Sequence record: ON528737
Origin: Shigella phage ESh27
Direction: 5' to 3' (one strand)
Length of the DNA stretch: 64,000 bases
Positions 1,282-63,219 of this stretch are shown here, piece by piece; the first letter of the stretch is position 1; every line of letters starts with the position of its first letter. The position numbers and the translations under genes are program-made. The notes under the pieces are model-generated. The model was not told where the DNA came from and ran no database searches. It saw only the letters and a list, made by a program, of their open reading frames with translations.

Positions 1282-1491
1282 ATGCTTTACGATTATACTG
1301 GAAAATCTGAAGACGGCGTACTTGAACTTTTACCTGAAAGCGCTGAAGATGATGATATGACGACGGTGATGTTTTGTAAAAATGGCCCTGGGGATAAGGG
1401 ATGGATTTATCTTCGTCAAGAAAATGACCTAATTGTTTTGGACCCTAAACAAGTTGAAGAGCTTTATCAACATTTAAAACACAATCGGTAG
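1282..1491 (+). CDS. hypothetical protein
   Basis: 69 aa; ATG after GAGGA; start adjusted from track ORF 1255..1491. Confidence 0.5.
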   Translation: MLYDYTGKSEDGVLELLPESAEDDDMTTVMFCKNGPGDKGWIYLRQENDLIVLDPKQVEELYQHLKHNR

Positions 1492-1521
1492 TTTACATCT
1501 TGGTAGGACTATGTTATAGTA
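1491..1521 (+). promoter_or_regulatory. early-type promoter within stem-loop (PeSL-like)
   Basis: GTTTAC-N18-TATAGT; 9-bp inverted repeat gtaggacta/tagtcctac flanks the -10. Confidence 0.5.
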
Positions 1522-1548
1522 GTCCTACTAAAACAAACGGAGAACAAA

Positions 1549-1659
1549 ATGAAACTTTTGCTTATCGCTTATGTTGTAGTACAATACAATTATCCGATGT
1601 TTACGTATAACATGGTAAACGGTGTAATGAATCTTATTGAAGCGAGTATGGTAAAATGA
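1549..1659 (+). CDS. hypothetical small protein
   Basis: 36 aa, GGAG SD; below track cut-off, read by eye. Confidence 0.3.
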   Translation: MKLLLIAYVVVQYNYPMFTYNMVNGVMNLIEASMVK

Positions 1660-1835
1660 CCCGTGAACAAGCTAATAAATTGATGGAACTTATCCGTAAC
1701 TTGCGTGAAGCCGATACTGATTTGAATGATGTAGCTCATTGCGAAGTAAATGGTGGCGACGAGTTCTATGAAAAACAGGTTGATGCTTGTCTGAATGATT
1801 TGGTGAATTTTGTTGAAACTTTAATTGGTGAATAA
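1656..1835 (+). CDS. hypothetical protein
   Basis: 59 aa; ATGA overlap with upstream ORF; read by eye. Confidence 0.4.
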   Translation: MTREQANKLMELIRNLREADTDLNDVAHCEVNGGDEFYEKQVDACLNDLVNFVETLIGE

Positions 1836-1836
1836 T

Positions 1837-2367
1837 ATGAAAACTGTAATTGAAACAACTGAGCTGTTTGGCGATTTATGTATCGAAAAACGTGGTTATG
1901 CTTACGTTCTGACACAAGAAGATGATGCTGTTACTATTCTTCCTATGGAACTGGACAAGATTTTGAAACTCAATCCACCAGGCCATGCATCTGTAATTAA
2001 CATTGACGAAGACCTTCAAGTTCGTTTTTATCACGGACTTTATAGTGGGGTTAATATCGAAACTGAAGACGAATGTTTTTCTATTAATAATTGGAAAACA
2101 TTCGTCACTAAGGTGAAAGAATTCATGGAATCTGAACCAGTCAAAAAGGCCAAACTTCAATGGTCTAAATGCCGTAATGCTTTTATTACAAATCTGGTCA
2201 ACCCTGACTCTACAACGGTCCTGAGCGTTAATCCTTCTTATGAAGACGGCGATGTCGTAGTTATTCGCCAAATTGATGACCTTCGTCAACATATCGTTAC
2301 ATTAGACAAAGATGAAGCAGTTGCTCTTAAAGCTTATCTTGATTCTATTATCCCGACTTTGAAATAA
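1837..2367 (+). CDS. hypothetical protein
   Basis: 176 aa; ATG at 1837 inside track ORF 1825..2367. Confidence 0.6.
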   Translation: MKTVIETTELFGDLCIEKRGYAYVLTQEDDAVTILPMELDKILKLNPPGHASVINIDEDLQVRFYHGLYSGVNIETEDECFSINNWKTFVTKVKEFMESEPVKKAKLQWSKCRNAFITNLVNPDSTTVLSVNPSYEDGDVVVIRQIDDLRQHIVTLDKDEAVALKAYLDSIIPTLK

Positions 2368-2376
2368 GGAATTATT

Positions 2377-2850
2377 ATGATTATCAATGAAAACTCTTGG
2401 CATTTTAAAATTTATGCAGCGTTCAATAGTACATGGAATCGTCCGAAAACGTTGTGTGCTTATTTTTGGAAAACGTTAATCCCGGTATTGGCTGTTTCAA
2501 TTATTGGATTTGCGATTTTAGCAGCAGTCATAATCATTGGCCATGAAATTTTAACTAAATTCTTTGTTTTTAGCAGTCTATGGACATTAGTTCCAGCCTC
2601 AATTGGTGTAGGCATTTTAATTGTAGCAGTCATGGCTCTTATTTCTGTTGGGTTGATAATTGGTCCGTCTTGGTTGTTAGACAAATATAACGACAGAAAA
2701 TATTATAAAGAAATTGAGCTCATTGCACAAAACCAAGAACGAATTAAAAATGGACTTGAGCCTATTGAACGTAAGAAATCATTAATAGGTGAATACCTTA
2801 AATCTCGTAAAGAAAAAGTCTGTCCTACTCTTGAATATAAGGCTAAATGA
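2377..2850 (+). CDS. hypothetical membrane protein
   Basis: 157 aa with several hydrophobic helices. Confidence 0.6.
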   Translation: MIINENSWHFKIYAAFNSTWNRPKTLCAYFWKTLIPVLAVSIIGFAILAAVIIIGHEILTKFFVFSSLWTLVPASIGVGILIVAVMALISVGLIIGPSWLLDKYNDRKYYKEIELIAQNQERIKNGLEPIERKKSLIGEYLKSRKEKVCPTLEYKAK

Positions 2851-3857: not shown

Positions 3858-3884
3858 GGGGGTCAAAATATTTTTAAAAAGTAG

Positions 3885-3913
3885 TGTACATGCTTTTAGG
3901 ATATGTTATTATA
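3885..3913 (+). promoter_or_regulatory. early-type promoter
   Basis: TGTACA-N16-TATTAT followed by conserved agacctatc. Confidence 0.45.
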
Positions 3914-3940
3914 GACCTATCAAAACAAGAGGAAAACAAA

Positions 3941-4159
3941 ATGAAAACCAAAATGTTAGAAATGATTCGTGAAGCTGGTGATAAAGGTCTTATGGTTAAC
4001 ACTCGTGATGCAGACCAACGTCAAGCATTCGGTGAACTGAAAGCTAAAGGTCTAGTTAAAGCATCCTTGGGAATCGGTAACGCATTACGAGTCACTTTGA
4101 CTCCTGCTGGTAAAGCAATGTTCTTTCAACCTCTTACCAAAAAATCTCGTCGCAAATAA
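3941..4159 (+). CDS. hypothetical protein
   Basis: 72 aa; ATG after AAGAGGAAAA SD. Confidence 0.55.
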   Translation: MKTKMLEMIREAGDKGLMVNTRDADQRQAFGELKAKGLVKASLGIGNALRVTLTPAGKAMFFQPLTKKSRRK

Positions 4160-4161: not shown

Positions 4162-4192
4162 GTTTACTTTTGCTTTAAACATGTTATTATAG
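4162..4192 (+). promoter_or_regulatory. early-type promoter
   Basis: GTTTAC-N17-TATTAT-agacctatc. Confidence 0.5.
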
Positions 4193-4229
4193 ACCTATCG
4201 AAACGAAATGAGTAAATTTGGAGAATAAA

Positions 4230-5210
4230 ATGTTCAACGTTCAAATCAAAAAAGGTATCTATCGTAATAACGAAATCTCTGGTTCTTATGTTGCCACAAA
4301 GACATGGTTCCCGGCAAAGCTTAATCCTGAATGTTCCCACTTAGGTGACGGTAAAATTTTCGTTATGATTGATGGTTCTGAACGTGGAGTATGGGTCTTC
4401 AAATCAGACATCGTAATGGAAGGAGTTGAGACATCACCAGTTGCAGTTATTGAAAGCGCTGAAGATATGAAAACTCGTATCAACAAACGCTTTAAAGTAA
4501 TGAACATGATGACGAATGGCATTATCGATGGCAAAATTCGTTCACTCATTATTTCAGGTGCAGCAGGTATTGGTAAGACGTATTCTCTGGATAAAGCACT
4601 TAATAATGCTAATGATAATGGTTTCATCAAATACAAAAGCATTAATGGCAAAATCTCTGGTATTGGCCTTTACGAACAACTTTGGCTCAACCGTGATGCA
4701 GACAGCGTTCTCTTAATCGATGACGTTGACGTATTCTCAGATATGGATATCTTGAACCTTCTTAAAGCAGCATTAGATACTGGCGATAAACGCAAAGTTT
4801 GCTGGAGCACTGCATCATCTTATCTTGATGATAAGGGTATCGATAAAGAATTTGAGTTTGAAGGTACTATCGTTTTCATTACAAACGTTGATATCGATAA
4901 AGAGTTAGAACGCGGTTCGAAACTTGCTCCACACCTTCAAGCTTTAGTATCTCGTTCAGTGTATTTGGACCTTGGAGTACACTCTAATGAAGAGATTATG
5001 GTCCGAGTTGAAGATGTAATATTATCTACTGACATGATGCAGAAACGTGGTCTGACTGATGCTGAAACGTATAAAGCATTGTCCTGGATGAAGGCTAACA
5101 TATCTCGTCTTCGCAATGTATCATTACGTACGGCTCTTTATGTAGCAGATTTTATTTCAACTGATAAAGACGGTTGGGAGGAAATCTCCGAAGTAACTTT
5201 ACTGAAATAA
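4230..5210 (+). CDS. P-loop ATPase (AAA-like)
   Basis: 326 aa; Walker A GAAGIGKT and Walker B VLLIDDVD. Confidence 0.65.
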   Translation: MFNVQIKKGIYRNNEISGSYVATKTWFPAKLNPECSHLGDGKIFVMIDGSERGVWVFKSDIVMEGVETSPVAVIESAEDMKTRINKRFKVMNMMTNGIIDGKIRSLIISGAAGIGKTYSLDKALNNANDNGFIKYKSINGKISGIGLYEQLWLNRDADSVLLIDDVDVFSDMDILNLLKAALDTGDKRKVCWSTASSYLDDKGIDKEFEFEGTIVFITNVDIDKELERGSKLAPHLQALVSRSVYLDLGVHSNEEIMVRVEDVILSTDMMQKRGLTDAETYKALSWMKANISRLRNVSLRTALYVADFISTDKDGWEEISEVTLLK

Positions 5211-5638: not shown

Positions 5639-5668
5639 GTTTACAAGGTCTATGGTTATGTTATTATA
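5639..5668 (+). promoter_or_regulatory. early-type promoter within stem-loop
   Basis: GTTTAC-N17-TATTAT; ggtctat/atagacc inverted repeat. Confidence 0.5.
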
Positions 5669-5694
5669 GACCTATCAACTACTGGAGGTAAAAC

Positions 5695-6222
5695 ATGAAC
5701 GCTAAAGATATTTTCAACCTGGTAAATTATAACGACGGTAAATTTAAATCTGAAGCACAAAGCAAGTTCTTTAATGACGTTGCTTATGGTAACGAGATTA
5801 CCGTGGACGGAGGTCAGATTTTCAAATCTCGCTGGAATTGGATTGTTATCATCGATTCGATTGGAATTGTGGAAGTCTACAAAAACACTAACAAAAAACG
5901 TACATTATTCTGGTCTCGTGAAACTAACGAGCAGTACAAAAAGGATAAAGCATCTCGTTTATCCAAAGTAACCAAGGAAGATATCGAGTTTATCAAGAAA
6001 GATATCGAGATGTACGAAAATTTAATCGCTGAAGACCAGGCAGTACTCGATAAGTTTGATGAAATTAAAGCTTCTCGTGAAATCCCTGACTTCATGAAAG
6101 AAACAGTAAACGAACGATACGCTCTCACTTCAGAACGTATTGCAAACTATACAAAACAGAAATCAGAACGTATTAGTACTCTTCGGAAATTTGAAGAACG
6201 TTTAAAGACGGTTCACGCATAA
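5695..6222 (+). CDS. hypothetical protein
   Basis: 175 aa; GGAGG SD. Confidence 0.6.
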   Translation: MNAKDIFNLVNYNDGKFKSEAQSKFFNDVAYGNEITVDGGQIFKSRWNWIVIIDSIGIVEVYKNTNKKRTLFWSRETNEQYKKDKASRLSKVTKEDIEFIKKDIEMYENLIAEDQAVLDKFDEIKASREIPDFMKETVNERYALTSERIANYTKQKSERISTLRKFEERLKTVHA

Positions 6223-6284: not shown

Positions 6285-7280
6285 ATGAGCATTACATCTG
6301 ATGCGGTAAAACATGAAATTAACGGTTTATGTGCTTCACAGATTAAAGTGTGGTTTAAAGACCATAACGATCGCAGAGCACTTAATTATGAGCAAATTGC
6401 TATCCAAGTTCATCAATTACTGACTAGTAAATTTGATTTTCATATGCCGTCTGAAATCTATACTAATCTGCCGCGAGCACTTATTAAAGCGTGTAAAGGT
6501 TATGGAAAATCAATGGCTGATGGAATCTTCAGCGCGCTGAATAAACTTAACGTTCTGTCGATGATTAACTCTAACAACATCCTGCGTAATCTAGGACGTA
6601 CTGATTTGTTCGGTCGTGAACAGTGTAAAATGCCTTTGAAATGGATCGTTGCTCATCTTAACGAGAACCAAACACGTTTTATGGCTGTAACAGCACGTTT
6701 ACAAATGGGCCTAGATCGTCAGATGAACTTTAAAACTCATCCACGTTATTCAGGTTCAACAGACTTTTATAAATGCGAGCTTCAAAAGGTCGGTGGCAAA
6801 ACTGTCTTAGTAGTTCGTGTAACGTTTGAAGGACGACGTCAAGGATATTTTGACATAATCGGCTCTGGACTTAAACATTGCGGATTTATCGACGAAGTTG
6901 ATATCAAGCGAGACGGCATTGGATACCGTATTGGATATGTTTGTACTCTTAAAGAAGAGATTTCAGGACCAGCACCAGGACTAAAAGACGTTAGATATAA
7001 AGACGAGCTCGTCGAAGAAATAAAAGAAGTTGAATATGATATCAACCAAGAAGATGCTCTTAAAGACCTTATTGATGAACTGAACCAAGACGTTATTCCG
7101 GTTCAGAAATTTGAATCAAAACATGCTGAGCAAATCAAATACTTTGAAGCTTTGATTAACGAACTTAATGTAACTATTCAACAGACCGACGATGAAATCT
7201 CACGATTGGCCGGATTGAACGGCAAAAATAAAACAGAACGAGCTAATCTTATTCAAGTAGTAAAACTTCTTAAGGAATGA
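6285..7280 (+). CDS. hypothetical protein with C-terminal coiled coil
   Basis: 331 aa; heptad-rich charged C-terminus. Confidence 0.6.
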   Translation: MSITSDAVKHEINGLCASQIKVWFKDHNDRRALNYEQIAIQVHQLLTSKFDFHMPSEIYTNLPRALIKACKGYGKSMADGIFSALNKLNVLSMINSNNILRNLGRTDLFGREQCKMPLKWIVAHLNENQTRFMAVTARLQMGLDRQMNFKTHPRYSGSTDFYKCELQKVGGKTVLVVRVTFEGRRQGYFDIIGSGLKHCGFIDEVDIKRDGIGYRIGYVCTLKEEISGPAPGLKDVRYKDELVEEIKEVEYDINQEDALKDLIDELNQDVIPVQKFESKHAEQIKYFEALINELNVTIQQTDDEISRLAGLNGKNKTERANLIQVVKLLKE

Positions 7281-7309
7281 TGTACAACCAAGGATGGTTG
7301 GAGTATAAT
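7281..7309 (+). promoter_or_regulatory. early-type promoter within stem-loop
   Basis: TGTACA-N17-TATAAT; core caaccaaggatggttggagtataat repeated at 8305 and 49382. Confidence 0.5.
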
Positions 7310-7335
7310 AAATTTTTCAACATGAGGAATATAAA

Positions 7336-8295
7336 ATGGCTCCTATTACACGTAGAGAACTTATCAAAGAATTTACCTCGAACGCATATACCCCAGGACC
7401 TAATCCTATCCGTATGCCTGTAAAGACACCTGAAGAGATTGAGGAAATCTGTTCATATTATGGGATTAATTCTCGTAAGTTTACTCAATTTGAATGTGTT
7501 ACTAACACACCCGTTAAAGAGTTCATTAAAAATGGTGAGTTCAGCCGTTTACTGGCCAAACAGAAACTTCGTAATTTTTGTATTGGCGGTTATGGACAAT
7601 ATTTCGCTAAGCAGTTCCGGAATAACCTTAACAATCTGATGGCCATTGCTTCTCGTATTCGTCCTCAAGCAATTAACATGAAACATTTGAAATATACTTA
7701 CGATAAGTTGGAAATCATGGTTATCAGTGAGAACGAGTTCACTCTTACGTATAAACCTAAGAATGATAACGTTGCTCGTGTATTCCACCAAGCGTTGGAA
7801 GTTTTAGGTGATAATATCCACGAGATTAAAGCAATTTATTCTCGTGAGCTTAATATTATCGACGTTATCAAGAATAAGGGCCATATCGCTATCCAGGCTC
7901 GTGTATCTATTGGTAAAAAGGTTCCTGCGCCATGGTGGCACAAAGACTCTGAATACTATCAAAATCTTAAAAAGGAAAATGCATTGTTTGAAGGCAATAT
8001 TACAGCAACACCAGTCGGTAATGCAGAGGTTCTAGGCGCATATTCTCCGGCACAATCTGGTATGTTTAAAGGTTTGCCAAATGTGTGCAAACTGTCGGCA
8101 GTAAAACTAAATGTTTCTAATGACCTTCTTCCGGCTGAAGATTATCATTACAATCAAATCAAGGCTACTGTAGACCAACTGTCTGCTGAACTTGATAAGG
8201 CACAAGCTAAGCTTCGTGATGCTCAACAGGTGGTGACCAATCTCCAGTTGCAGTACTCTAAACTTTTTAACGCAATGAATGCATTAAAATCATAA
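7336..8295 (+). CDS. hypothetical protein with C-terminal coiled coil
   Basis: 319 aa. Confidence 0.6.
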   Translation: MAPITRRELIKEFTSNAYTPGPNPIRMPVKTPEEIEEICSYYGINSRKFTQFECVTNTPVKEFIKNGEFSRLLAKQKLRNFCIGGYGQYFAKQFRNNLNNLMAIASRIRPQAINMKHLKYTYDKLEIMVISENEFTLTYKPKNDNVARVFHQALEVLGDNIHEIKAIYSRELNIIDVIKNKGHIAIQARVSIGKKVPAPWWHKDSEYYQNLKKENALFEGNITATPVGNAEVLGAYSPAQSGMFKGLPNVCKLSAVKLNVSNDLLPAEDYHYNQIKATVDQLSAELDKAQAKLRDAQQVVTNLQLQYSKLFNAMNALKS

Positions 8296-8299: not shown

Positions 8300-8329
8300 G
8301 TTTACAACCAAGGATGGTTGGAGTATAAT
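8300..8329 (+). promoter_or_regulatory. early-type promoter within stem-loop
   Basis: GTTTAC-N18-TATAAT; same 25-mer core as 7285 and 49382. Confidence 0.5.
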
Positions 8330-8357
8330 GAATCTATCTTAACGAGAGGAAAATATT

Positions 8358-9302
8358 ATGACGCGTTCACATTACATTGAATACTTTGCCGGTCTTATCG
8401 CTAACGTTCGTGCCCAGCGCGCCGTTGGTGCACTAGGATTTGATGTTCCACACCGAGATGTAGTAAGTGGTATTCTTCGCGATTTTGGTACATACACAGG
8501 CCAAGAAAACCATATCTGTAAAGATACTCAGAATGCGTATTCTCATTCATTAGGGACACTGCTTCAATGGTTCAAACGTTCTCGTTTATTATCTTCTACT
8601 GTAGCTCGCGATAACATTAAAAACTTTATGAAGCCGAGCTTTATTAAATCTGTGACATCTAAAACCGATTTGGTTGAATTCACTATTGTTAATGATGTTA
8701 AAAAGGCTCATTTGGCCGATTGGTTATCTACCATTCCTGAAACTAAATTTGCCGATAAATTTGCTTGTGAATTCAACAACCAAGTGAATATGCTTTTTAA
8801 ACATTCTCGTAAATTATTCACAGGCGGTGATGGTCGTACAAATAAAGTTCATGTTAAAGATTGGGTTACTGCAGTATTCAAACCAACCGGTAATGGTAAC
8901 GCATCATTATCAATTGATATCCAGGTTCCTTATTACTACTCACGTAATCTCGGTACCATGAAAGCCGAAGAAATTAATAAGCACAACAAAACCGTTCGTT
9001 CATTGTCTTATAAACTCCTTGTGATGTTACAGACTATGGATGTTGTTGAAATGTTTGACGAAACCGAAGATAACGGTTCAATGTTATTCAGTTCTCGAAT
9101 TCGAATTAAACTGAAGAACCCTAATGTGTTTAAGCCTATTAAAGAACCTAAAGCAGAAAAGGTCGATATCATGGCTGAAGAACGTGAGTACCTCAAATCT
9201 CGTCTGAAAGAAGTCGAAGCCCAGATTGCAGAACAAACTAAATCGTTAAAAGCTCTGAATGCGAAAGCTGACGGTTTACGAAATGCCATTGAGGTGTTAT
9301 AA
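8358..9302 (+). CDS. hypothetical protein with C-terminal coiled coil
   Basis: 314 aa. Confidence 0.6.
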   Translation: MTRSHYIEYFAGLIANVRAQRAVGALGFDVPHRDVVSGILRDFGTYTGQENHICKDTQNAYSHSLGTLLQWFKRSRLLSSTVARDNIKNFMKPSFIKSVTSKTDLVEFTIVNDVKKAHLADWLSTIPETKFADKFACEFNNQVNMLFKHSRKLFTGGDGRTNKVHVKDWVTAVFKPTGNGNASLSIDIQVPYYYSRNLGTMKAEEINKHNKTVRSLSYKLLVMLQTMDVVEMFDETEDNGSMLFSSRIRIKLKNPNVFKPIKEPKAEKVDIMAEEREYLKSRLKEVEAQIAEQTKSLKALNAKADGLRNAIEVL

Positions 9303-9607
9303 TGAACTTACGTCTTTTAGAGGATATTGATATGAACACTAATCACAGCTTAGTTAAGTTTATTGATGATAGTTCAAAGATTGAATTTGTTCAGCGAGAT
9401 AAAATCCACGGTGAAGAAGAGTTCGTTCCTCCAGCATGGAACGAAATAATGAAAATGGTTGAACGACGTGAAAATGCTGCCAAATCGGCAGCAAAACATC
9501 CATGTCCGGAATGTGGAACTATCCAAGTCCAATTGGTTAACTGGACCACTGATAACTTGAAATTGAAATGCCGTAAATGCTTCCACAAATTTGAGAGAAC
9601 ATTATAA
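9302..9607 (+). CDS. hypothetical zinc-ribbon protein
   Basis: 101 aa; CPEC...CRKC motif. Confidence 0.55.
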   Translation: MNLRLLEDIDMNTNHSLVKFIDDSSKIEFVQRDKIHGEEEFVPPAWNEIMKMVERRENAAKSAAKHPCPECGTIQVQLVNWTTDNLKLKCRKCFHKFERTL

Positions 9608-10629: not shown

Positions 10630-10757
10630 ACCATGGTATTCGGCTCGATGGGAGACTGTCGAGCCAGACGTCGAAACGGTTTACAACGGCGAAGAACCAT
10701 GTTATGATGAACCTTCAATAAATGAATTAATTGATATGGAAATGGGAAGAGATTATT

Positions 10758-10928
10758 ATGCAAGTTAAATTATTGTACCGTTTATTAAAAAACGGCAAAC
10801 ATGATTGGTATTTGCTTATTAAAACCGATCCGAATTTTTTCTCTGGACAACCATTTACAGTTCGTCCTACTAAACGTCAGCTTCGCAAAGCTAAACGTTC
10901 TCATCGTAACTTTTATAAAGTTTACTAA
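10758..10928 (+). CDS. hypothetical small basic protein
   Basis: 56 aa; C-terminal VRPTKRQLRKAKR tail shared with ORF 38732..38944. Confidence 0.4.
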   Translation: MQVKLLYRLLKNGKHDWYLLIKTDPNFFSGQPFTVRPTKRQLRKAKRSHRNFYKVY

Positions 10929-14769: not shown

Positions 14770-14798
14770 GTTTACATCCTCGATAGATATGTTAAGAT
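14770..14798 (+). promoter_or_regulatory. early-type promoter
   Basis: GTTTAC-N17-TAAGAT. Confidence 0.4.
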
Positions 14799-14827
14799 TA
14801 ACACCATCTACCACAGAGGAAAACAAA

Positions 14828-15010
14828 ATGACAATTGAAGATAAAGAAATTAAGGTTGACCAGTACTATTCTGTCAATGGTAATGCAGTACGGATAACCA
14901 GAATTTCAAGCCTGGATGTTTGGTATCGTTCAATCAAATATCCAGAAATTGGTGAACTGCTTTGTGACCGTGGTATCTTCTGTTCAATCGCGAAGGAAAT
15001 TAAACTATGA
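14828..15010 (+). CDS. hypothetical protein
   Basis: 60 aa; ATG after AGAGGAAAA SD. Confidence 0.45.
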   Translation: MTIEDKEIKVDQYYSVNGNAVRITRISSLDVWYRSIKYPEIGELLCDRGIFCSIAKEIKL

Positions 15011-15262: not shown

Positions 15263-15556
15263 ATGGGTAAAACATATCGTCGTAAAGATTTGAAAGTTCG
15301 CGATTACGACTATTTTGGTAAGCGTAAAGCTCCTGATGGTGTTAGCCACAAAGACATGGTTGAAAACATCTTCCGCTCAGATAAATGGAAACGTATGAAA
15401 GGCGTTGATTCTGAAGTCAAGAACGAAATGAATCGACAACTCCGCAAAGAAGTTCGTAAGTTGAAAAAGGATGTTTACAGTAAAGAAGAGTATGATTATA
15501 ATACTTCTCATACTGAAGCCAAACGTAAAGCTAACGAATGTTATCGTTACAGTTGA
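15263..15556 (+). CDS. hypothetical basic protein
   Basis: 97 aa; GAGGT SD. Confidence 0.5.
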   Translation: MGKTYRRKDLKVRDYDYFGKRKAPDGVSHKDMVENIFRSDKWKRMKGVDSEVKNEMNRQLRKEVRKLKKDVYSKEEYDYNTSHTEAKRKANECYRYS

Positions 15557-15896: not shown

Positions 15897-15899
15897 TAA

Positions 15900-15938
15900 T
15901 GTACAACGATAGGAAGACATGTTATTATCTTCCTATCG
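15900..15938 (+). promoter_or_regulatory. early-type promoter within stem-loop (PeSL-like)
   Basis: TGTACA-N17-TATTAT; 10-bp inverted repeat gataggaaga/tcttcctatc around the -10. Confidence 0.5.
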
Positions 15939-15959
15939 TCTTAAAATGAGGAAAATATC

Positions 15960-16199
15960 GTGGCCCAAGAATTAGATTTTATCAAATTCAAAAAACACCT
16001 CGACGTTAAAATTGGGGATTCAATTGTTAGGATTGAGTATGACATTTTAACAGATGCTATTACTGTTAGATGTGATGGAAATAGTTTCAGCTTCGATACA
16101 ACCGAAAACAAATACCCAATCTATAAAGGCATCTTTGATATGGGTGTTGATATTACTCCACGTGATACAAATTACTTACTTTTCATGCTTAAAAAATAG
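15960..16199 (+). CDS. hypothetical protein
   Basis: 79 aa; GTG start after AGGAAAA. Confidence 0.45.
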   Translation: MAQELDFIKFKKHLDVKIGDSIVRIEYDILTDAITVRCDGNSFSFDTTENKYPIYKGIFDMGVDITPRDTNYLLFMLKK

Positions 16200-16234
16200 T
16201 GTACAGACTCTTGAGAGCAGAGTATAATGCTCTC
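16200..16234 (+). promoter_or_regulatory. early-type promoter within stem-loop (PeSL-like)
   Basis: TGTACA-N17-TATAAT; gagagc/gctctc inverted repeat; near-identical copy at 60883..60917. Confidence 0.5.
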
Positions 16235-16265
16235 GTTGGATAATAAAATAACCGAGGAAAATAAT

Positions 16266-16598
16266 ATGTCTACTAAAATCAAAAACGTAGTTAATTCTTT
16301 CGCTTTCGATAAAGTTGTTGCTCTTCTGGAATCCGGCAATATTGTTACTCCTCAAGTTCTTGACGCGTGGGAATTCCGTCTTTATGAAATCATGCAAAAA
16401 CACGACCAGAAAATTGGACGTAATTCTATTCGTGAAATTCTAGTACAATATATTCTTTCTGAATTTGACGTTGCTGCATTTGGTGTTGAATCTAAAGCTT
16501 ATCAGAAACATGAAATCTCTGAAAAGACTATCCGTCGTATGAAAAATCAACGTAAGAAAAAATTCGTTGACCTGAAAATTGTTAAGGCGGTAAAATGA
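16266..16598 (+). CDS. hypothetical protein
   Basis: 110 aa; GAGGAAAA SD. Confidence 0.5.
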   Translation: MSTKIKNVVNSFAFDKVVALLESGNIVTPQVLDAWEFRLYEIMQKHDQKIGRNSIREILVQYILSEFDVAAFGVESKAYQKHEISEKTIRRMKNQRKKKFVDLKIVKAVK

Positions 16599-16822: not shown

Positions 16823-16977
16823 AACTATCTCGAATTGCTATAACCGAAGAAAAGTTTGGTGAATTTTAAGTCGTCAACTTTATGAAAGTTACGTATCTTT
16901 GATAGTATCTCGTGCTTTAAGATAGGTCTCTAAATATTATGATATAATAGACCTATGAATTGAGCCAAGAGGTACTT

Positions 16978-45333: not shown

Positions 45334-45360
45334 AGACTTATCTTTAAACGGAGGTCTATC

Positions 45361-45524: not shown

Positions 45525-45552
45525 ACCTTTATCAACCATAGGAGAAACCTAA

Positions 45553-46161: not shown

Positions 46162-46313
46162 CTGGATTGGAATAACCGGATGGAACTCAGAACCATTATA
46201 ACACATAAAAAATTAAAGCATTTTACGAAAAAAGAGTGTACACTACCTGAGGGCATGATATTATAAGCTTATCAGCTAAATGACCTAACGTCCGTAAGAC
46301 AGAGGAAAATATT

Positions 46314-47060
46314 ATGTTATCAAATAATAAAATTAACAAAATCAATCGTCGTCTTGACCACACCAGAGCTTCTGCGAAGAGACGCTCTAAGGATTTTAAC
46401 TTAGACTTTAATTACCTTAAAAACATTCTTGATCAAAAGGTCTGCGCTTACTCAGGTGAATCTTTCAATAACTCTGTTGAAGGTGAGAAATTATCCTTAG
46501 AACGTTTTAATAACGATATCGGCTACATTAAAGGTAATGTTATCCCTGTTAAGAAAAAATATAATACGGCTCGTTCTGATTTAACATTAGAAGAACTTAT
46601 TGAGAAACGTGACGCTATTGCAAGACGTATCGCTAATCCTTCTGTCCGTAAAGTAGAGAAACTTAATCTTGATGAGAAGAAATGGGCCCAAATTAAAAAG
46701 GTTTATGGTACTATTTTAAAAATCCGAGCAAAACGTGAAAATCGTGTTAAGCATATGGCTAACATGATGAAAAATCAACCTTTATCTAACGAATCTAAAC
46801 TTAGAATTGTTGCTTTGAAGGCACGCATTAATGGCTCACATCAAGCGGAAGGCCATGAACTTACTAAACTCAACGTTCTTCTTAAAGGCTCTGACTGGAA
46901 AACTAAAACTAAATTAACTGACGCTGAATCGCTTTTCGATACATATGATAAAGTTATCCAAGGTTTGCAACGTTTTGAAAAGATTGGTTTCATTGGTAAA
47001 TTAAAATTGAAACGTGGCTTACCACTTAGCGCATCATTATTCCAACTGATTAAAGGTTAA
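46314..47060 (+). CDS. hypothetical protein (Srd position by synteny)
   Basis: 248 aa between Mod-like gene and dda; contains LERFNNDIGYIKGNV segment; identity not confirmed. Confidence 0.4.
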   Translation: MLSNNKINKINRRLDHTRASAKRRSKDFNLDFNYLKNILDQKVCAYSGESFNNSVEGEKLSLERFNNDIGYIKGNVIPVKKKYNTARSDLTLEELIEKRDAIARRIANPSVRKVEKLNLDEKKWAQIKKVYGTILKIRAKRENRVKHMANMMKNQPLSNESKLRIVALKARINGSHQAEGHELTKLNVLLKGSDWKTKTKLTDAESLFDTYDKVIQGLQRFEKIGFIGKLKLKRGLPLSASLFQLIKG

Positions 47061-49376: not shown

Positions 49377-49406
49377 GTTTACAACCAAGGATGGTTGGAG
49401 TATAAT
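49377..49406 (+). promoter_or_regulatory. early-type promoter within stem-loop
   Basis: GTTTAC-N18-TATAAT; same 25-mer core as 7285 and 8305. Confidence 0.5.
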
Positions 49407-49437
49407 CTTTCTATCTTAACCAAACAGGAAAAACATT

Positions 49438-49932
49438 ATGAATATCAATACTACGGCTACTTACATCCTGAAAGACGAAAAACAAATTAACTGGTATGGT
49501 GCTTCAGTGCGAGCTTACGAAAAGTTTTGTGAAATTTTAGGCACCACTCAAGGTAATAGTTTCACTATTGTTAACTTCATCAAACAAGCTGAAGGCCCTT
49601 GGTTATTCTTAGAAATTAAAAATTCATATGGTACAATTTCCACTACCGCCCTTCCAAGCACAGACTTTGAACTGTTGATTGAAGAAGTAGAACCCGTTAA
49701 AGACATCTGTATTGATATGGATATCGCTTGTATGTACGGTACTCTGATTAAGCCTATTGAGCCTACTGATTTGCTGTGTAAATATGTTTCAATTCGACGC
49801 CCGTTCGCAGGTCCAGTAAATGGATGGGTAACTGACCAGTGGATTGAAGACGGTGTTGAACTTCTGAACGTTGTTCATGCAGGTGATTTTAGTGTAGTTC
49901 CACGTAGTGCTGTGGTTAATATCCTTAATTAA
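49438..49932 (+). CDS. hypothetical protein (paralog family, copy 1)
   Basis: 164 aa; C-terminal GWVTDQWIEDGVELLNVVHAGDFSVV shared with the next two genes. Confidence 0.55.
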   Translation: MNINTTATYILKDEKQINWYGASVRAYEKFCEILGTTQGNSFTIVNFIKQAEGPWLFLEIKNSYGTISTTALPSTDFELLIEEVEPVKDICIDMDIACMYGTLIKPIEPTDLLCKYVSIRRPFAGPVNGWVTDQWIEDGVELLNVVHAGDFSVVPRSAVVNILN

Positions 49933-49935
49933 TGT

Positions 49936-49964
49936 TGTACATCCAAGGATGGATGGAGTATAAT
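49936..49964 (+). promoter_or_regulatory. early-type promoter within stem-loop
   Basis: TGTACA-N17-TATAAT; variant of the caaccaagg...tataat core. Confidence 0.5.
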
Positions 49965-49994
49965 GAATTCAATTTAAACAAAGAGAGAGAAATT

Positions 49995-50480
49995 ATGAAT
50001 CTTGGTATTATTGGTGAAATCGTTCGCGTATCTAACAAATCTCGTTCTAAAGCCGCAGGAAAATTGGTCGAAGTTGTAAGTATTCAACTTAAAGAAGGCG
50101 TTAAAGATGAAGATTCTGAGGTAAAAGTTCGTATTATTCCTAGTTTTGGGACACAGGAAACCAAATTTGCTTATGTTCGTGCAAAGTTCTTGGAAACGCC
50201 TGTGAGTAGTGCTTTTGCTTCAAGAGAAAAAGTTGAATCCACAGAGCATAATGCACAGTTCAAATGGGCCTTGTGTAAAGGTGTTGAATTCCAGACCGAT
50301 AAAGAATTTGACTTCATCGATGAATATGGTTATCCAAGCAAAACTGATACTATGTGTGGCTTCATTAGTGACCAATGGGTTGAAGATGGTGAAAAGTTAT
50401 ACAATATCGTATTCTTAGGTGACTTCCGAGTTGTTAAAGAATCTGAAATCACTCGCTATGTGTCTCCTCGTAAAGCTTAA
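49995..50480 (+). CDS. hypothetical protein (paralog family, copy 2)
   Basis: 161 aa; N-terminal SRSKAAGKLVEVVS and C-terminal GFISDQWVEDGEKLYNIVFLGDFRVV. Confidence 0.55.
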   Translation: MNLGIIGEIVRVSNKSRSKAAGKLVEVVSIQLKEGVKDEDSEVKVRIIPSFGTQETKFAYVRAKFLETPVSSAFASREKVESTEHNAQFKWALCKGVEFQTDKEFDFIDEYGYPSKTDTMCGFISDQWVEDGEKLYNIVFLGDFRVVKESEITRYVSPRKA

Positions 50481-50913: not shown

Positions 50914-50962
50914 GTTTACTTCTCCTCTGGTTTTGATATTATAACCATATCAACCAGAGGAG
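50914..50962 (+). promoter_or_regulatory. early-type promoter within stem-loop (PeSL-like)
   Basis: GTTTAC-N17-TATTAT inside an 11-bp inverted repeat ctcctctggtt/aaccagaggag; distal arm supplies the SD. Confidence 0.5.
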
Positions 50963-50968
50963 AATAAT

Positions 50969-51217
50969 ATGTTAGTTTACCGCGTAGAACGTAGTTTTTG
51001 TACTCAACGTGAATCATTACCAGGAATTGCTATTGAAGACGGTAAAGCCGTCAGAATTTGGGAAACCTCTTGGAATAAAGAACCTCGTTCGCCATACGGT
51101 TGGTCGGGCACCGACAACTCTGAAGAAACATGGGAGTTCCTTGATAAACATGGAATACTCTCAGGTAATTTCTACCATCACGGCGACAACTATAATGTCC
51201 CTAATCGTCGAAGATAA
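50969..51217 (+). CDS. hypothetical protein
   Basis: 82 aa; GAGGAG SD. Confidence 0.5.
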   Translation: MLVYRVERSFCTQRESLPGIAIEDGKAVRIWETSWNKEPRSPYGWSGTDNSEETWEFLDKHGILSGNFYHHGDNYNVPNRRR

Positions 51218-51482
51218 ACTCCTTGAACAAAATATCTTAAGATACTATAGAATTGAGCACACATTTGAATTGAGTGAAGATTGGGCTCAAGGGTTCTATT
51301 TTGGATTTGAAAGTGTTGACGCGGTTTATGCATGGTTTGATGACCAGGTAGATGTTGAACTCTTGAAAGCTAAAGGATACTACATCGCGGTCTATGAAGC
51401 ACCTGATTTCATCCTCGGAAGTTGTCAATTAGTGTTCAGACGTTCATTGGCAGAACAAGTTGATTTTATTTTGCTAAAATGA
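51195..51482 (+). CDS. hypothetical protein (overlaps upstream gene, no SD)
   Basis: 95 aa from first in-frame ATG; 23-nt overlap with 50969..51217. Confidence 0.35.
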   Translation: MSLIVEDKLLEQNILRYYRIEHTFELSEDWAQGFYFGFESVDAVYAWFDDQVDVELLKAKGYYIAVYEAPDFILGSCQLVFRRSLAEQVDFILLK

Positions 51483-51511
51483 TGTACAACAACTATGGTC
51501 TATGATACTAT
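51483..51511 (+). promoter_or_regulatory. early-type promoter within stem-loop
   Basis: TGTACA-N17-TACTAT; ggtctat/atagacc inverted repeat. Confidence 0.5.
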
Positions 51512-51539
51512 AGACCTATCAAAACAAGAGGAGAATATT

Positions 51540-51767
51540 ATGAAACGTCAAATCATTAAAAACGTAACTACTGATTCAAACATCGATGAGTTTGAAGATG
51601 TTCTGTTTAATCCTGATTTAGTTGTTGTACAGAAAAACTGGACTGAATTTTTATGCTACACTGAAGTGGTTTACGTTTACGAAAAACTCGGTGATGAAAT
51701 GCCTATCTATGGTATCTTCCGTGAAATCACTGAAAATGGTACAACTTATTGGAAGGAAACTTACTAA
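51540..51767 (+). CDS. hypothetical protein
   Basis: 75 aa; AAGAGGAGAA SD. Confidence 0.45.
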
Positions 51768-60108: not shown

Positions 60109-60139
60109 GTTTACAACTAAGTAGGACTATGATACAGTA
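60109..60139 (+). promoter_or_regulatory. early-type promoter within stem-loop
   Basis: GTTTAC-N18-TACAGT; taggacta/tagtccta inverted repeat. Confidence 0.45.
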
Positions 60140-60164
60140 GTCCTATCTAAAAGAGGATAACATC

Positions 60165-60428
60165 ATGAAATTTAAATTTTTCTACGCAAAACATAAAGTG
60201 ACAGGTGAGTTTGTTTCAATGTACAACACCGCAGACGACGAAGGGATGATTTATACCCATTTAGGCCTATCTCGTTGGGACTCGGACGTGCCTTATATGT
60301 CATCTGAAGCCGAAATAACTCGTCTGGTTAATGGACATATGAACGACCATTTTGGTGTTATTCTTTCTAAAGACCTTAAAGAGGTTATCAACAAAGGATA
60401 TATGGAACTCGCGGAAGTTGAGATATGA
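60165..60428 (+). CDS. hypothetical protein
   Basis: 87 aa; AAGAGGA SD. Confidence 0.5.
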   Translation: MKFKFFYAKHKVTGEFVSMYNTADDEGMIYTHLGLSRWDSDVPYMSSEAEITRLVNGHMNDHFGVILSKDLKEVINKGYMELAEVEI

Positions 60429-60620: not shown

Positions 60621-60650
60621 GTTTACATCACGGTACGATTATGGTATAGT
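60621..60650 (+). promoter_or_regulatory. early-type promoter
   Basis: GTTTAC-N18-TATAGT. Confidence 0.45.
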
Positions 60651-60678
60651 AGTCTTATCAAAACACGAGGAATACAAA

Positions 60679-60879
60679 ATGGCTAAGCTTTTTAAAGATG
60701 TTGAAATTGGTGAAAAATTTGTCCTGAATAATGGTCAGCAGCTTATTCGTGTAGCTTCTATCGCCGGACAAACTCATAACTGTATCGCCCCAACGTGTTG
60801 GACTCGATTCTTTATTGAAGATGACACTGAATGTTTAACTGTTGAAGAGCTTTTTGAACGTTCTGATATGACCGAATAA
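60679..60879 (+). CDS. hypothetical protein
   Basis: 66 aa; ACGAGGAA SD. Confidence 0.45.
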   Translation: MAKLFKDVEIGEKFVLNNGQQLIRVASIAGQTHNCIAPTCWTRFFIEDDTECLTVEELFERSDMTE

Positions 60880-60882
60880 AAT

Positions 60883-60917
60883 TGTACAAACTCTTGAGAG
60901 CAGAGTATAATGCTCTC
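60883..60917 (+). promoter_or_regulatory. early-type promoter within stem-loop (PeSL-like)
   Basis: TGTACA-N17-TATAAT; near-identical to 16200..16234. Confidence 0.5.
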
Positions 60918-60955
60918 ATGGATTACAAAAACATTAATCAATTGAGGAAATTAGC

Positions 60956-61402
60956 ATGACCAAATATTTAACTCGTAAAGACCTTCTGGCCGTTGGCGGT
61001 GAAGTTGTTGCAGTAGTTCGTAATGGTGAATACGGTTCCGAAGTTTCTAAAGAGTTTCGTTCTCGTGAAGGTTTTTACTTCTTTGTTAAAGGTTCATCTG
61101 ACTGGCGACAAGTAGCAGCACGATTCTTTGTAGGACGCCAACGTTCTAAACAAGGGTTAGATGCAATTCTTTCTCACATTCGTCAAGGCCGTTCGCAACT
61201 GGCTCGTACCATGGGCACTAATAATATTGAATATGATGTAATCTTTGTTTCAGCCAAGAACATGAAACCTCTGACTACCGGTTATGGTAAAGGTCAATTG
61301 GCTCTGGCATTCACTCGCAATCATTCATCAGAATATCAAACACTCACTGAAATGAACCGTCTTCTGGCTGATAATTTCAAATTCATTCTGCAGAGTTACT
61401 AA
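60956..61402 (+). CDS. ndd: nucleoid disruption protein Ndd-like
   Basis: 148 aa; [30 protein letters not shown] and SHIRQ.RSQLART match my recollection of T4 Ndd. Confidence 0.55.
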
Positions 61403-61443: not shown

Positions 61444-61455
61444 GAGGTAATTAAA

Positions 61456-61602
61456 ATGGTAGCATGGATTATTGCATTGCTGTGTTGGTCGTTTTTATTC
61501 GTTAACACTTTAGTTACGGGCGAAACAACAGTATTTCAACAGGCCGTATCACAAGGTACCTTAGCAGTCTTAGCTCTTATTAACGTGTTAAAAGGCGAGT
61601 AA
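61456..61602 (+). CDS. hypothetical small membrane protein
   Basis: 48 aa hydrophobic; GAGGT SD; read by eye. Confidence 0.35.
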   Translation: MVAWIIALLCWSFLFVNTLVTGETTVFQQAVSQGTLAVLALINVLKGE

Positions 61603-61742
61603 TGATTAAGAAAATCTTAACAGGAGCCTTCGGGCTCTTGTTGTTGCTTACGGTTCTGTACTACGGTGTGATGTTTGGACTAATCCAAGTAGTGCTTTTC
61701 ATTTCAGATGTTATAATGGTTATTCGTTCATTAATATGGTGA
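61602..61742 (+). CDS. hypothetical small membrane protein
   Basis: 46 aa hydrophobic; TAATG overlap; read by eye. Confidence 0.35.
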   Translation: MIKKILTGAFGLLLLLTVLYYGVMFGLIQVVLFISDVIMVIRSLIW

Positions 61743-61746
61743 AAAT

Positions 61747-63072
61747 ATGCAATTGAATTCTCGTAATCTAAAAAGTATTATTGATAACGAAGCCTTAGCA
61801 TATGCGATGTACACCGTTGAAAACCGTGCAATCCCAAACATGATTGATGGATTCAAGCCGGTTCAACGTTTTGTGATTCATCGTGCGTTAGATTTGGCTC
61901 GTGGTAATAAAGAAAAATTTCATAAACTTGCGTCAATTGCGGGTGGTGTTGCAGATTTAGGTTATCACCATGGTGAATCTTCTGCACAAGATGCAGGTGC
62001 ATTAATGGCTAACACATGGAACAACAACTATCCACTGTTAGATGGTCAAGGCAACTTTGGTTCTAGAACAGTCCAAAAAGCTGCAGCATCTCGTTATATT
62101 TTTGCTCGTGTAAGTAAAAATTTCTATAATGTCTATAAAGATACTGAATATGCTCCAGCTCATGAAGATAAAGAACACGTTCCACCAAAATTCTATCTTC
62201 CTATTATTCCGACAGTTCTTTTGAATGGTGTCTCTGGTATTGCAACCGGTTACGCAACAAATATTCTGCCTCATAGTTTTAAATCAGTCAAAAAGGCCGT
62301 ATTACAAGCTCTTCAAGGTAAAAATGTCACTAAGCCAAAAGTTGAATTCCCGGAATTCCGTGGTGAAGTGCATGAAGTTGATGGGCGATATGAGATTCAT
62401 GGAACATATAAGTTCACATCTCGCACTCAAATGCAGATAACTGAAATCCCATATAAATTCGATCGTGAAACGTATGTGAGTAAGGTTCTTGACCCGTTGG
62501 AAGACAAAGGTCTAATCTCGTGGGAAGACGATTGTGGTGAACACGGCTTTGGGTTTAAGGTGAAGTTCCGTAAAGAGTACTCGCTTCCTGATGATGAAGA
62601 GCTACGTCATGAAAAAATCATGAAAGATTTTAGTCTCATCGAACGTCGTTCACAAAACATCACAGTGATTAATGAAAAGGGTAAATTAGCGGTCTATGAT
62701 AACGTAGTGGACTTAATCAAAGATTTTGTTGAAGTCCGTAAGACTTACGTTCAGAAACGTATTGACAACAAAATCCTTGAATCTGAAAAAGCATTTAAAC
62801 TTGCTTTTGCTAAGGCACACTTCATCAAAAAAGTTATCAGTGGTGAAATTGTGATTCAGGGCAAGACTCGTAAAGCTTTGACTGAAGAGCTAGCACAAAT
62901 CGAAATGTATAAAGAACATGTTGATAAACTGGTAGGTCTTAACATCTTCCATATCACTTCCGACGAAGCACGTAAACTAGCAGAAGAAGCTAAAGCTAAG
63001 AAAGAAGAAAACGAGTATTGGAAGTCTACTGATGTTGTGACAGAGTACACTAAAGACTTGGAGGCACTTTGA
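61747..63072 (+). CDS. 52: DNA topoisomerase II medium subunit gp52 (GyrA-like)
   Basis: 441 aa; breakage-reunion domain (FIHRALD...ASRYIF...RV); position after ndd region as in T4. Confidence 0.9.
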   Translation: MQLNSRNLKSIIDNEALAYAMYTVENRAIPNMIDGFKPVQRFVIHRALDLARGNKEKFHKLASIAGGVADLGYHHGESSAQDAGALMANTWNNNYPLLDGQGNFGSRTVQKAAASRYIFARVSKNFYNVYKDTEYAPAHEDKEHVPPKFYLPIIPTVLLNGVSGIATGYATNILPHSFKSVKKAVLQALQGKNVTKPKVEFPEFRGEVHEVDGRYEIHGTYKFTSRTQMQITEIPYKFDRETYVSKVLDPLEDKGLISWEDDCGEHGFGFKVKFRKEYSLPDDEELRHEKIMKDFSLIERRSQNITVINEKGKLAVYDNVVDLIKDFVEVRKTYVQKRIDNKILESEKAFKLAFAKAHFIKKVISGEIVIQGKTRKALTEELAQIEMYKEHVDKLVGLNIFHITSDEARKLAEEAKAKKEENEYWKSTDVVTEYTKDLEAL

Positions 63073-63148
63073 GTGCCCTAGCCTTAGGATTTCTCGGTGC
63101 AATAGCTGCACTAGTGATTTGGCTGTATTGGTTGGACAATCACGATTA

Positions 63149-63179
63149 GGGAGCTTCGGCTCCCTTTGTGCATTTTTTT
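63149..63179 (+). terminator. rho-independent terminator (UUCG loop)
   Basis: gggagcttcggctccc followed by T-run. Confidence 0.6.
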
Positions 63180-63189
63180 CTCACAAAAC

Positions 63190-63219
63190 AGTTTACATGT
63201 GCTTCAAACGTGATATTAT
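63190..63219 (+). promoter_or_regulatory. early-type promoter
   Basis: GTTTAC-N18-TATTAT-agacctatc. Confidence 0.5.

Follow-up and report, generated by a model that had tools for sequence, protein, structure and literature searches.

Between the early genes in a stretch of 64,000 nucleotides from Shigella phage ESh27 (sequence record ON528737; this whole stretch is hereafter termed the window) we found 28 promoter cassettes of a known kind, the promoter-early stem-loops (PeSLs) of T4-like phages. A genuine stem-loop is present in roughly half of them, and at a few of them crossovers have led to the gain or loss of small genes. We consider it highly probable that these are sigma-70 early promoters lying in portable cassettes, that the cassettes occasionally act as crossover points, and that about half of them bear an intercistronic RNA hairpin on the sense strand, to which a putative role is assigned below. 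The PeSL idea, which was proposed from three other pairs of T4-like phages, thus extends to the RB69 group.

The early promoters of the window and their RB69 counterparts

Megablast assigns the window to the RB69 group of T4-like phages (Mosigvirus), where it shares ~96% identity with Escherichia phages CCU7 and PTK and with Shigella phage Shf125875, and it represents the early-gene region of such a phage. Its sequence is reverse-complemented relative to the standard map, so that all of its genes lie on the plus strand, in the order rI/tk.1 side, nrdC.x, 49, nrdD/G, 55, 47, 46, 45, 44, 62, regA, 43, uvsX, 41, 61, soc, modA/B, srd, dda, motB, 39, rIIA/B, ndd, 52, up to motA.

A simple scan of the window for GTTTAC/TATAAT yielded 30 matches on the plus strand and 10 on the minus strand. 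A two-block position weight matrix (PWM), built from the clear sites, scored 27 plus-strand sites above 12 together with one marginal minus-strand site (the maxima in shuffled sequences averaged 9.3, the worst being 15.5), and a PWM of the -35 and -10 elements only found 32, 29 and 27 plus-strand sites at thresholds of 14, 16 and 18, respectively, and no minus-strand site. An additional promoter, at 60882, came from an unbiased search for direct repeats. Altogether there are 28 solid sites, all on the plus strand, and 2 weak ones (9274 and 15473). A first-pass annotation, made from the sequence of the window, had put their number at about 20, which is too few, and the range it gave begins too late to include the site at 1039; the recurring T4-type promoter motif that it described is real, with 27-32 plus-strand sites against 0-1 on the minus strand and almost none in shuffled sequence. 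The solid sites share the consensus GT[T/G]TAC-N17/18-TATNAT, that of a T4-type early promoter, preceded by an AT-rich upstream block (a.tc.cataaAgta). Of their -35 hexamers, 19 are GTTTAC, 4 GTGTAC, 3 ATGTAC and 2 TTGTAC, and the sites display the features of such promoters, namely a GTTTAC -35, a spacer of 17-18 nt, a TG-extended TATAAT-like -10 and an orientation toward an early gene. A generic TTGACA-N16-18-TATAAT scan of the window gave no enrichment (71 matches versus 68 expected and 71 versus 66 expected), which ties the signal specifically to the T4-type consensus.

A list of 58 predicted early promoters is available for RB69 (Nolan et al. 2006, PMC1524935, Additional file 3), and we carried their coordinates onto the window through a BLAST alignment. 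All 29 predicted promoters of the orthologous region map one-to-one onto window sites, falling 10-17 nt upstream of the start of the -35 element in all but two cases, as expected from their 51-nt model; only the weak candidate at 9274 has no RB69 counterpart. Early promoters of RB69 prefer C at positions -3 to -1 (Nolan 2006, PMC1524935), a preference that fits agaCCtAtc and places the predicted transcription start at the A ~7 nt after the -10 element. The first-pass annotation had noted that agacctatc is conserved after several -10 elements, and this is borne out above chance: AGACCTATC has 7 exact copies on the plus strand, 6 of which come right after a -10, and 3 more cassettes carry it with one change. 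When up to one mismatch was allowed, it matched 23 times on both strands, compared to 10.2 expected, and 0 of 100 shuffles reached 23. By consensus and orthology, then, the sites are sigma-70-dependent early promoters of an RB69-group phage, with predicted transcription starts; the set has already been catalogued for RB69 and as a feature is already known.

Each cassette consists of the promoter, an A-rich leader of 20-25 nt, a Shine-Dalgarno (SD) sequence and a start codon, measures ~60-95 bp and occupies the entire interval from one early gene to the next. An SD and a start codon follow all 28 solid sites, with a predicted leader of 20-25 nt in 23 of them, and in 17 of 27 cassettes the stop codon of the upstream open reading frame (ORF) lies 0-6 nt before the -35, which leaves the promoter and leader as the only non-coding space between the genes. 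The cassettes are the dominant dispersed repeats of the region: families D1-D9, D11, D16 and D19 of the direct-repeat search are all cassettes, family D1 spanning the -10 to the ATG. Four cassettes (7274-7323, 8294-8343, 49371-49420 and 49929-49978) share a nearly identical spacer, aaccaaggatggttggag. Over 50 nt, the copy at 8294 has 94% identity to the one at 49371, although 41 kb separate them, which suggests that one cassette was copied or that gene conversion occurred between them. No cassettes are found in 16.3-37.7 kb or 51.6-60.1 kb, where the core replication genes are located. The first-pass statement that the promoters precede small ORFs of unknown function is correct for some of the cassettes and incorrect for many others, whose downstream genes (motA, modA, modB, srd, imm, sp, ndd, cef and motB) belong to the known early genes.

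A stem-loop is present in about half of the cassettes

The three inverted repeats that the first-pass annotation had quoted, in the cassettes at 1491, 15899 and 50914 (cassettes are designated by their first nucleotide), are present at the positions given there and fold as RNA with -18.3, -18.2 and -23.7 kcal/mol. Their stems reach z scores of -5.6, -4.9 and -7.0, respectively, and 0 of 200 dinucleotide shuffles fold as well. Over 27 cassettes the mean fold z is about -1.5, with values of ~0 for 3884 and 63191, and z is below -2 in 11 of the 27 (41%), compared to 8.8% of 373 random windows of the same sequence (Mann-Whitney p = 2e-4). By our tally, ~16 of the 28 cassettes have an embedded stem (12 with arms of at least 7 bp), 5 have a hairpin just upstream, two of these having an embedded stem as well, and ~9 have neither. 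Furthermore, a spacer pairs more strongly with the region downstream of it than with those of other cassettes: the duplex of a spacer with its own downstream region has an energy of -9.56 kcal/mol, compared to -6.81 kcal/mol for cross pairs, a difference matched by 0 of 20,000 permutations. The same tendency was observed in an independent sample, a pattern scan of IMG/VR whose 120 loci gave 209 unique cassettes, in which an exact spacer/discriminator complement of at least 6 nt occurs in 18%, compared to 3-4% for mismatched pairs.

The stems follow three layouts. In the first, the spacer pairs with the -10/discriminator region and the -10 lies in the loop (1491, 5639, 15899, 16199, 39688, 51482, 60109 and 60882); in the second, the spacer pairs with the SD region (1039, 14770, 37736, 38170 and 50914, with 45305 as a variant); and in the third, found in the four-member sub-family 7280, 8300, 49377 and 49935, a 5-bp hairpin forms within the spacer. 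A fixed-register covariation map of 230 cassettes showed no dominant diagonal (best mean excess 0.024), and hence no single consensus structure or covariance model is appropriate. We also considered AGACCTATC as an arm of a universal stem and rejected this possibility, as GGTCT is found in the spacer of only 1 of 25 IMG/VR cassettes that have AGACCT. Among IMG/VR cassettes with AGTCCT, GGACT is found in the spacer of 10 of 15.

Changes between orthologous cassettes mostly keep the pairing. The cassette at 16199 shows a compensatory change of C:G to A:T in Shf125875 and RB69, and the orthologue changes at 1491, 38170 and 15899 go via G·U. At the 51482 position, one relative has GGACT/AGTCC where the window has GGTCT/AGACC, and at the 5639 position the IMG/VR relatives L034 and L094 carry an SD-pairing spacer instead of a discriminator-pairing one.

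Pairing is on the sense strand

A transition in a Watson-Crick pair gives either G·T or A·C, the two outcomes being equally likely beforehand, and an A·C on one strand is a G·T on the other, so that the mismatches within helices report which strand pairs. For 312 cassettes from the window, its relatives and IMG/VR, we took the best ungapped helix of at least 9 positions with at most 1 internal mismatch. Such helices are present in 37.5% of the cassettes, compared to 7.6% of 2,060 control windows, and their internal mismatches comprise 50 G·T versus 6 A·C, compared to 21 versus 25 in the controls. After clustering to 44 helix families, the counts were 22 G·T versus 4 A·C (p = 5e-4; Fisher test versus control, p = 0.001). 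The excess of G·T over A·C implies that it is the sense strand that must pair, which speaks against an operator bound by a protein and against a cruciform formed by both strands, and the simplest reading of sense-strand pairing is read-through RNA. Folding the reverse-complement strand, done for the window only, did not separate the strands (Wilcoxon p = 0.46). As the 5' arm always lies upstream of the predicted start, the hairpin can form only in read-through RNA and never in the cassette's own transcript.

Genes come and go by crossover within cassettes

We compared the window with Shf125875, RB69, TH12, LNA2 and nine IMG/VR fragments, and found 12 indel or replacement loci, none of them in 18.7-38.7 kb. 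Cassette-bearing zones, which make up ~52% of the window, hold 10 of the 12 (binomial p ~0.03), and at 4 of the 12 a breakpoint falls within a cassette or right beside one. The comparison of flanking gene content across relatives, which the first-pass annotation had proposed, revealed two loci at which an ORF is gained or lost by crossover inside a cassette. At the first locus, TH12 and the IMG/VR fragment L026 are without 3927-4180 and have a chimeric 3884/4162 cassette from which the intervening ORF (3941-4159) is gone, the crossover lying within the shared tgtTATTATagacctatc. In 152 Mosigvirus records this ORF is kept in ~51 and missing in ~100, with four combinatorial layouts. At the second locus, LNA2 has an extra ORF of ~80 amino acids between two copies of the 63191 cassette, and this insertion upstream of motA occurs in 7 of 14 sampled relatives. 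These loci provide population-level examples, among ~150 sequenced relatives, of an ORF that comes and goes via crossover inside a promoter cassette. Since the cassettes share 20-90 nt of similar sequence, they probably act at times as portable homology, through which recombination adds or removes the gene between two copies.

Several other variable loci were observed. One of them, a third case beside a cassette, is an insertion of 593 bp (408-1000), specific to the window and absent from Shf125875, RB69, TH12, LNA2 and L026. It has on either side a copy of a terminator hairpin (377-400 and 1000-1023), the two copies forming a direct repeat of 24-32 bp, and contains an ORF (438-995) for a 185-amino-acid DUF7338 / phrog_2143 protein. 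Two small DUF7279 paralogues (10758-10928 and 38732-38944) have in common a motif at the C terminus, RPTKRQ(L/I)R..K (repeat family D10); a related motif is found at 43241-43285, and all three copies lie at indel or replacement breakpoints versus relatives. At 16900/16901, the window is without 185 bp common to all four relatives, and a degenerate cassette (16913-16957) lies twelve nt downstream. Finally, 18241-18705, comprising two small ORFs and a strong terminator (18489-18515), is common to the window and TH12 and replaced in RB69, Shf125875 and LNA2, and is the only variable locus well outside the cassette zones.

Comparison with known promoter cassettes

PeSLs are described as strong sigma-70-type early promoters with an AT-rich upstream region and an SD and start codon at the 3' end, located in hyperplastic regions (PMC2839356, PMC4122927), and their stem-loop lies mostly between the -35 and -10 or overlaps the -10 (Arbiol 2010, PMC2839356). 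The cassettes of the window are like the PeSLs of RB49/phi1 (PMC2839356) in promoter type, AT-rich upstream region, stem position, 3' SD and start codon, clustering in hyperplastic regions and recombination between copies that removes or adds an ORF. They differ in that their -35 is GT(T/G)TAC and not TTGACA, in that no stem has a T-run, and in that the stems are AT-rich and cassette-specific rather than polyG/polyC. The PeSLs of PST/T4 and nt-1/KVP40 (Comeau 2014, PMC4122927) have a consensus, TTTACW-N17-TAYWAT, that matches ours, and there too indels adjoin cassettes; the PST layout, in which a hairpin lies just upstream of the promoter (PMC4122927), is found in five window cassettes (1039, 3884, 37736, 43848 and 63191), whereas most of the window stems are embedded in the promoter as in RB49, and Mosigvirus was outside the 2014 analysis. 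The early promoters listed for RB69 (Nolan 2006, PMC1524935) correspond to ours at all 29 sites, including the C-rich -3 to -1 region; that paper is silent on recombination, and a word search of it for stem-loop, hairpin or inverted repeat found none. We found no PeSL work on Mosigvirus in the literature after 2014.

Another precedent is the hairpins of T4 genes e, soc, 49 and I-TevI (PMC3014915), in which the promoter lies inside the hairpin, so that the short transcript is without the 5' arm and the long one masks the SD. The cassettes at 50914, 38170, 1039, 37736, 14770 and 45305 share this geometry. In the known T4 cases the promoter is a late (gp55) one and late genes are kept from being expressed early, whereas the window promoters are sigma-70 early promoters, and only a minority of the window cassettes are built as a promoter within a hairpin.

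To summarize, the likeness to PeSL cassettes claimed by the first-pass annotation is upheld by the promoter type, the stem, the SD and start codon, the hyperplastic location and the recombination products; the sequence does not support the terminator half of the PeSL description, since the embedded stems have no T-run. What is added here is modest: the sense-strand asymmetry, the missing terminator signatures, the subset that could switch by transcript origin, and the polymorphism at two cassette loci. The PeSL idea is thereby sharpened, with stems that are kept on the sense strand, pointing to RNA, and that do not resemble classical terminators.

Possible roles of the hairpin

We propose that the stem is an intercistronic RNA hairpin on read-through transcripts, which would be forced into the promoter because there is no other non-coding space. 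It may act on the upstream message as a 3'-end structure or as an attenuator, and in five or six cassettes it may also mask the downstream ribosome-binding site. More specifically, and only tentatively, the sequences would allow the hairpins to be RNA devices that tell transcripts apart by their origin and insulate the gene of each portable cassette from upstream read-through, some cassettes masking the ribosome-binding site and others ending or stabilizing the upstream message. The asymmetry between G·T and A·C and the split-hairpin geometry are compatible with such discrimination by origin, an idea that we nonetheless hold to be rather unlikely; if true, it would constitute an early-promoter counterpart of the hairpin switch of T4 late genes and would be part of what makes a cassette portable.

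A number of observations weigh against the proposal of portable cassettes with RNA hairpins. The claim that many of the promoters have inverted repeats holds for about half of them, and ~12 of the 28 are without a convincing stem; where stems exist, they keep no fixed register in the 230 cassettes of the covariation map. Stems are also disrupted in places, by an uncompensated T to G change at 1039 in Shf125875 and, in the window itself, by a C x T mismatch at 60621. Tolerance of G·T would also fit single-stranded DNA of the sense strand. None of the embedded plus-strand stems has a T-run or looks terminator-like in the terminator scan, and A-rich leaders (e.g., atcaaaac) follow them. As to plasticity, 8 of the 12 indel loci are not at cassettes, the 4 that are represent no excess if breakpoints simply fall at gene junctions, and the three-cassette cluster 60109/60621/60882 is collinear in 152 of 152 full-length matches. 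The first-pass claim that the cassettes mark the plastic regions is therefore sustained at the 10-kb scale and only weakly at the fine scale. With many cassettes being stable, we conclude that they permit gene shuffling and do not by themselves drive it.

Other accounts of the hairpin deserve consideration. In the classical PeSL model, the embedded stem-loops are terminators or attenuators that stop upstream transcription, so that each cassette drives its own gene. One RB49 PeSL stem reduced lacZ expression as strongly as rrnB T1 (PMC2839356), and in the window the stems come directly after the upstream stop codon and are kept on the sense strand, and the cassettes 3884, 43848 and 63191, which have a canonical terminator hairpin upstream, have no embedded stem, as if the two were alternatives. 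Nevertheless, the intrinsic-terminator signature of a GC-rich stem followed by a T-run is absent from the embedded stems, most of which are AT-rich and 7-13 bp long and none of which passes the scan; T-runs occur only at separate upstream hairpins (377, 1000, 43812 and similar). The window does contain canonical GC-rich tetraloop hairpins with T-runs, five of them just upstream of the promoters that share the PST layout, and thus the phage uses the canonical form when it terminates. With an A-rich leader in place of a T-run, classical termination is unlikely, and we doubt this model as a whole. A slightly better case, although still an improbable one, can be made for a translational switch, an early-promoter version of the e/soc/49/I-TevI arrangement in which the gene is translated only from its own early promoter. 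In the six cassettes with the T4-type geometry, the 3' arm covers the SD or the spacer between SD and AUG and the 5' arm precedes the predicted start; in the promoter's own transcript the SD..AUG region gains 0.19-0.46 in predicted unpaired probability; and the SD-pairing design of the 5639 orthologues, along with the precedent reviewed in PMC3014915, points the same way. A switch would cover only 5-6 of the 28 cassettes, however, and in most stems, where the spacer pairs with the discriminator, the SD stays accessible in either transcript. Although predicted SD masking stands out at 50914, 38170 and a few other cassettes, we rejected it as a general rule, the mean unmasking gain of 0.165 across the class not being significantly above the 0.113 of a mock-start control on 46 other genes (p = 0.09), which also counts against the proposed masking.

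That the stems have no function, being by-products of cassette duplication or recombination or chance pairings in AT-rich sequence, would account for the stemless cassettes (12 of 28), for orthologues with broken stems and for the looser helices, in which other mismatches are as common as G·T. The roughly five-fold enrichment over control windows, the preference of spacers for their own downstream regions, the compensatory and wobble-preserving changes and the strand asymmetry all speak against it, and we regard it as quite unlikely. It is hardly credible that the inverted repeats act at the DNA level, as operators for a dimeric protein or as cruciforms that regulate or cut the promoter: they are centred on the -10, and the mechanism by which T4 shuts off its early promoters is unknown (PMC2988021, PMC3014915), yet the arm sequences differ among cassettes and co-vary rather than stay conserved, their register is variable, and the mismatches are of the G·T and not the A·C type, a bias not expected of a double-stranded element or of a cruciform made by two strands.

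Cassette coordinates and neighbouring genes

The cassettes and related elements are listed in Table 1, which may serve annotation as a ready promoter map of this genome.

Table 1. Early-promoter cassettes, weak candidate promoters and related elements of the window (all sites not otherwise described are early promoter cassettes).
Position	Strand	Promoter and downstream gene	Stem, hairpin or remark	RB69 promoter
1039..1097	+	GTTTAC-17-TATAGT; before mobD.2a homologue	Helix 1045-1052/1083-1090 covers SD; inner helix 1053-1057/1069-1073	Pe:58138
1491..1551	+	GTTTAC-18-TATAGT	13-bp stem 1500-1512/1519-1531, -10 in loop; z -5.6	Pe:57689
3884..3943	+	GTGTAC-17-TATTAT-AGACCTATC	No embedded stem; z -0.5; crossover partner in TH12/L026 deletion	Pe:55296
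4162..4232	+	GTTTAC-17-TATTAT-AGACCTATC; before nrdC.10	No stem; second crossover partner in TH12/L026 deletion	Pe:55018
5639..5697	+	Before nrdC.8	Stem 5646-5656/5663-5673 (spacer with -10/discriminator); z -1.8	Pe:53683
7280..7338	+	ATGTAC-18-TATAAT	aaccaaggatggttggag spacer sub-family (D5)	Pe:52042
8300..8360	+	GTTTAC-18-TATAAT	aaccaaggatggttggag spacer sub-family	Pe:51019
10679..10760	+	GTTTAC-18-TATGAT; before DUF7279 small ORF	No stem	Pe:48639
14770..14830	+	GTTTAC-17-TAAGAT	Interrupted helix, spacer to SD region; z -4.2	Pe:43945
15899..15962	+	ATGTAC-18-TATTAT	12-bp stem 15906-15917/15928-15939, -10 in loop; z -4.9	Pe:42816
16199..16268	+	GTGTAC-18-TATAAT	Stem 16213-16219/16228-16234; z -2.9	Pe:42515
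37736..37797	+		Helix 37745-37751/37782-37788 over SD; tetraloop hairpin 37712-37729 just upstream	Pe:20971
38170..38227	+		14-bp helix 38176-38189/38207-38220, spacer with SD region; z -6.5	Pe:20537
38947..39007	+	Before imm.1	No stem; upstream edge is right boundary of 204-bp indel	Pe:19761
39377..39437	+	Before imm	No stem	Pe:19331
39688..39749	+	Before sp	Stem 39703-39709/39716-39722	Pe:19020
43848..43908	+	Before mrh.2	Canonical terminator hairpin 43812-43833 ahead	Pe:14950
45305..45363	+	Before truncated modB	Helix 45328-45338/45353-45363, -10/discriminator with SD-AUG spacer; z -2.8	Pe:13466
45495..45555	+	Before modA		Pe:12829
46236..46316	+	Before srd		Pe:12088
49377..49440	+	Before motB.1	Spacer sub-family D5	Pe:8947
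49935..49997	+	TTGTAC-18-TATAAT; before motB	Spacer sub-family D5	Pe:8387
50914..50971	+	Before frameshifted motB.2	12-bp helix 50920-50931/50953-50964, spacer with SD; inner helix 50934-50939/50947-50952; z -7.0	Pe:7443
51482..51542	+	ATGTAC-18-TACTAT-AGACCTATC; before cef	Stem 51497-51504/51509-51516; z -2.0	Pe:6863
60109..60167	+		Stem 60121-60130/60137-60146; z -2.2	Pe:165795
60621..60681	+	Before ndd.1	Weak stem, C x T mismatch where RB69 has G-C	Pe:165283
60882..60958	+	TTGTAC-18-TATAAT; before ndd	82% copy of 16199 cassette including stem (60895-60902/60911-60918)	Pe:165022
63191..63261	+	Before motA	No embedded stem; hairpin 63149-63164 upstream	Pe:162713
15473..15502	+	GTTTAC-18-TATAAT; weak candidate promoter	Inside ORF start	Pe:43242
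9274..9303	+	GTTTAC-18-TATAAT; weak candidate promoter	Over nrdC.3/nrdC.2 junction	Absent from list
377..400	+	Terminator-type hairpin	agccccttccgaaaggttggggct + T-run; left copy of direct repeat flanking 593-bp insert	
1000..1023	+	Terminator-type hairpin	Right copy of agccccttccgaaaggttggggct; 16 nt upstream of promoter 1039	
16913..16957	+	Degenerate cassette: Mot-box-like TGCTTTA, TATAAT	Inverted repeat gataggtct/agacctatg around -10	

Several of the neighbouring genes deviate from those of the relatives. The modB locus (45361-45495) encodes a 44-amino-acid in-frame remnant (MTCQSE|QEYMVSG...), ~439 bp that are present in RB69, Shf125875, TH12 and LNA2 being missing in the window. In motB.2 (50969-51482), an 11-bp deletion versus RB69 shifts the frame and gives two overlapping ORFs, not one ORF of 174 amino acids, so that motB.2 may be a pseudogene or reflect a sequencing error; it sits downstream of the strongest SD-pairing cassette (50914).

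Two further sites resemble parts of the cassettes. The annotated start of nrdG contains, at 13287-13356, a hairpin resembling a terminator (13287-13312) and after it GTTTGC-17-TATAAT (13328), so that the true nrdG start, or a possible internal regulatory site, may need checking. At 21885-21951, upstream of gene 45.2, a middle promoter predicted in RB69 (Pm:36813; cGCTTTA-N12-CATTAT) has its -10 flanked by a 5-bp inverted repeat, gtggt/accac, and thus shows the same design at a MotA-type promoter.

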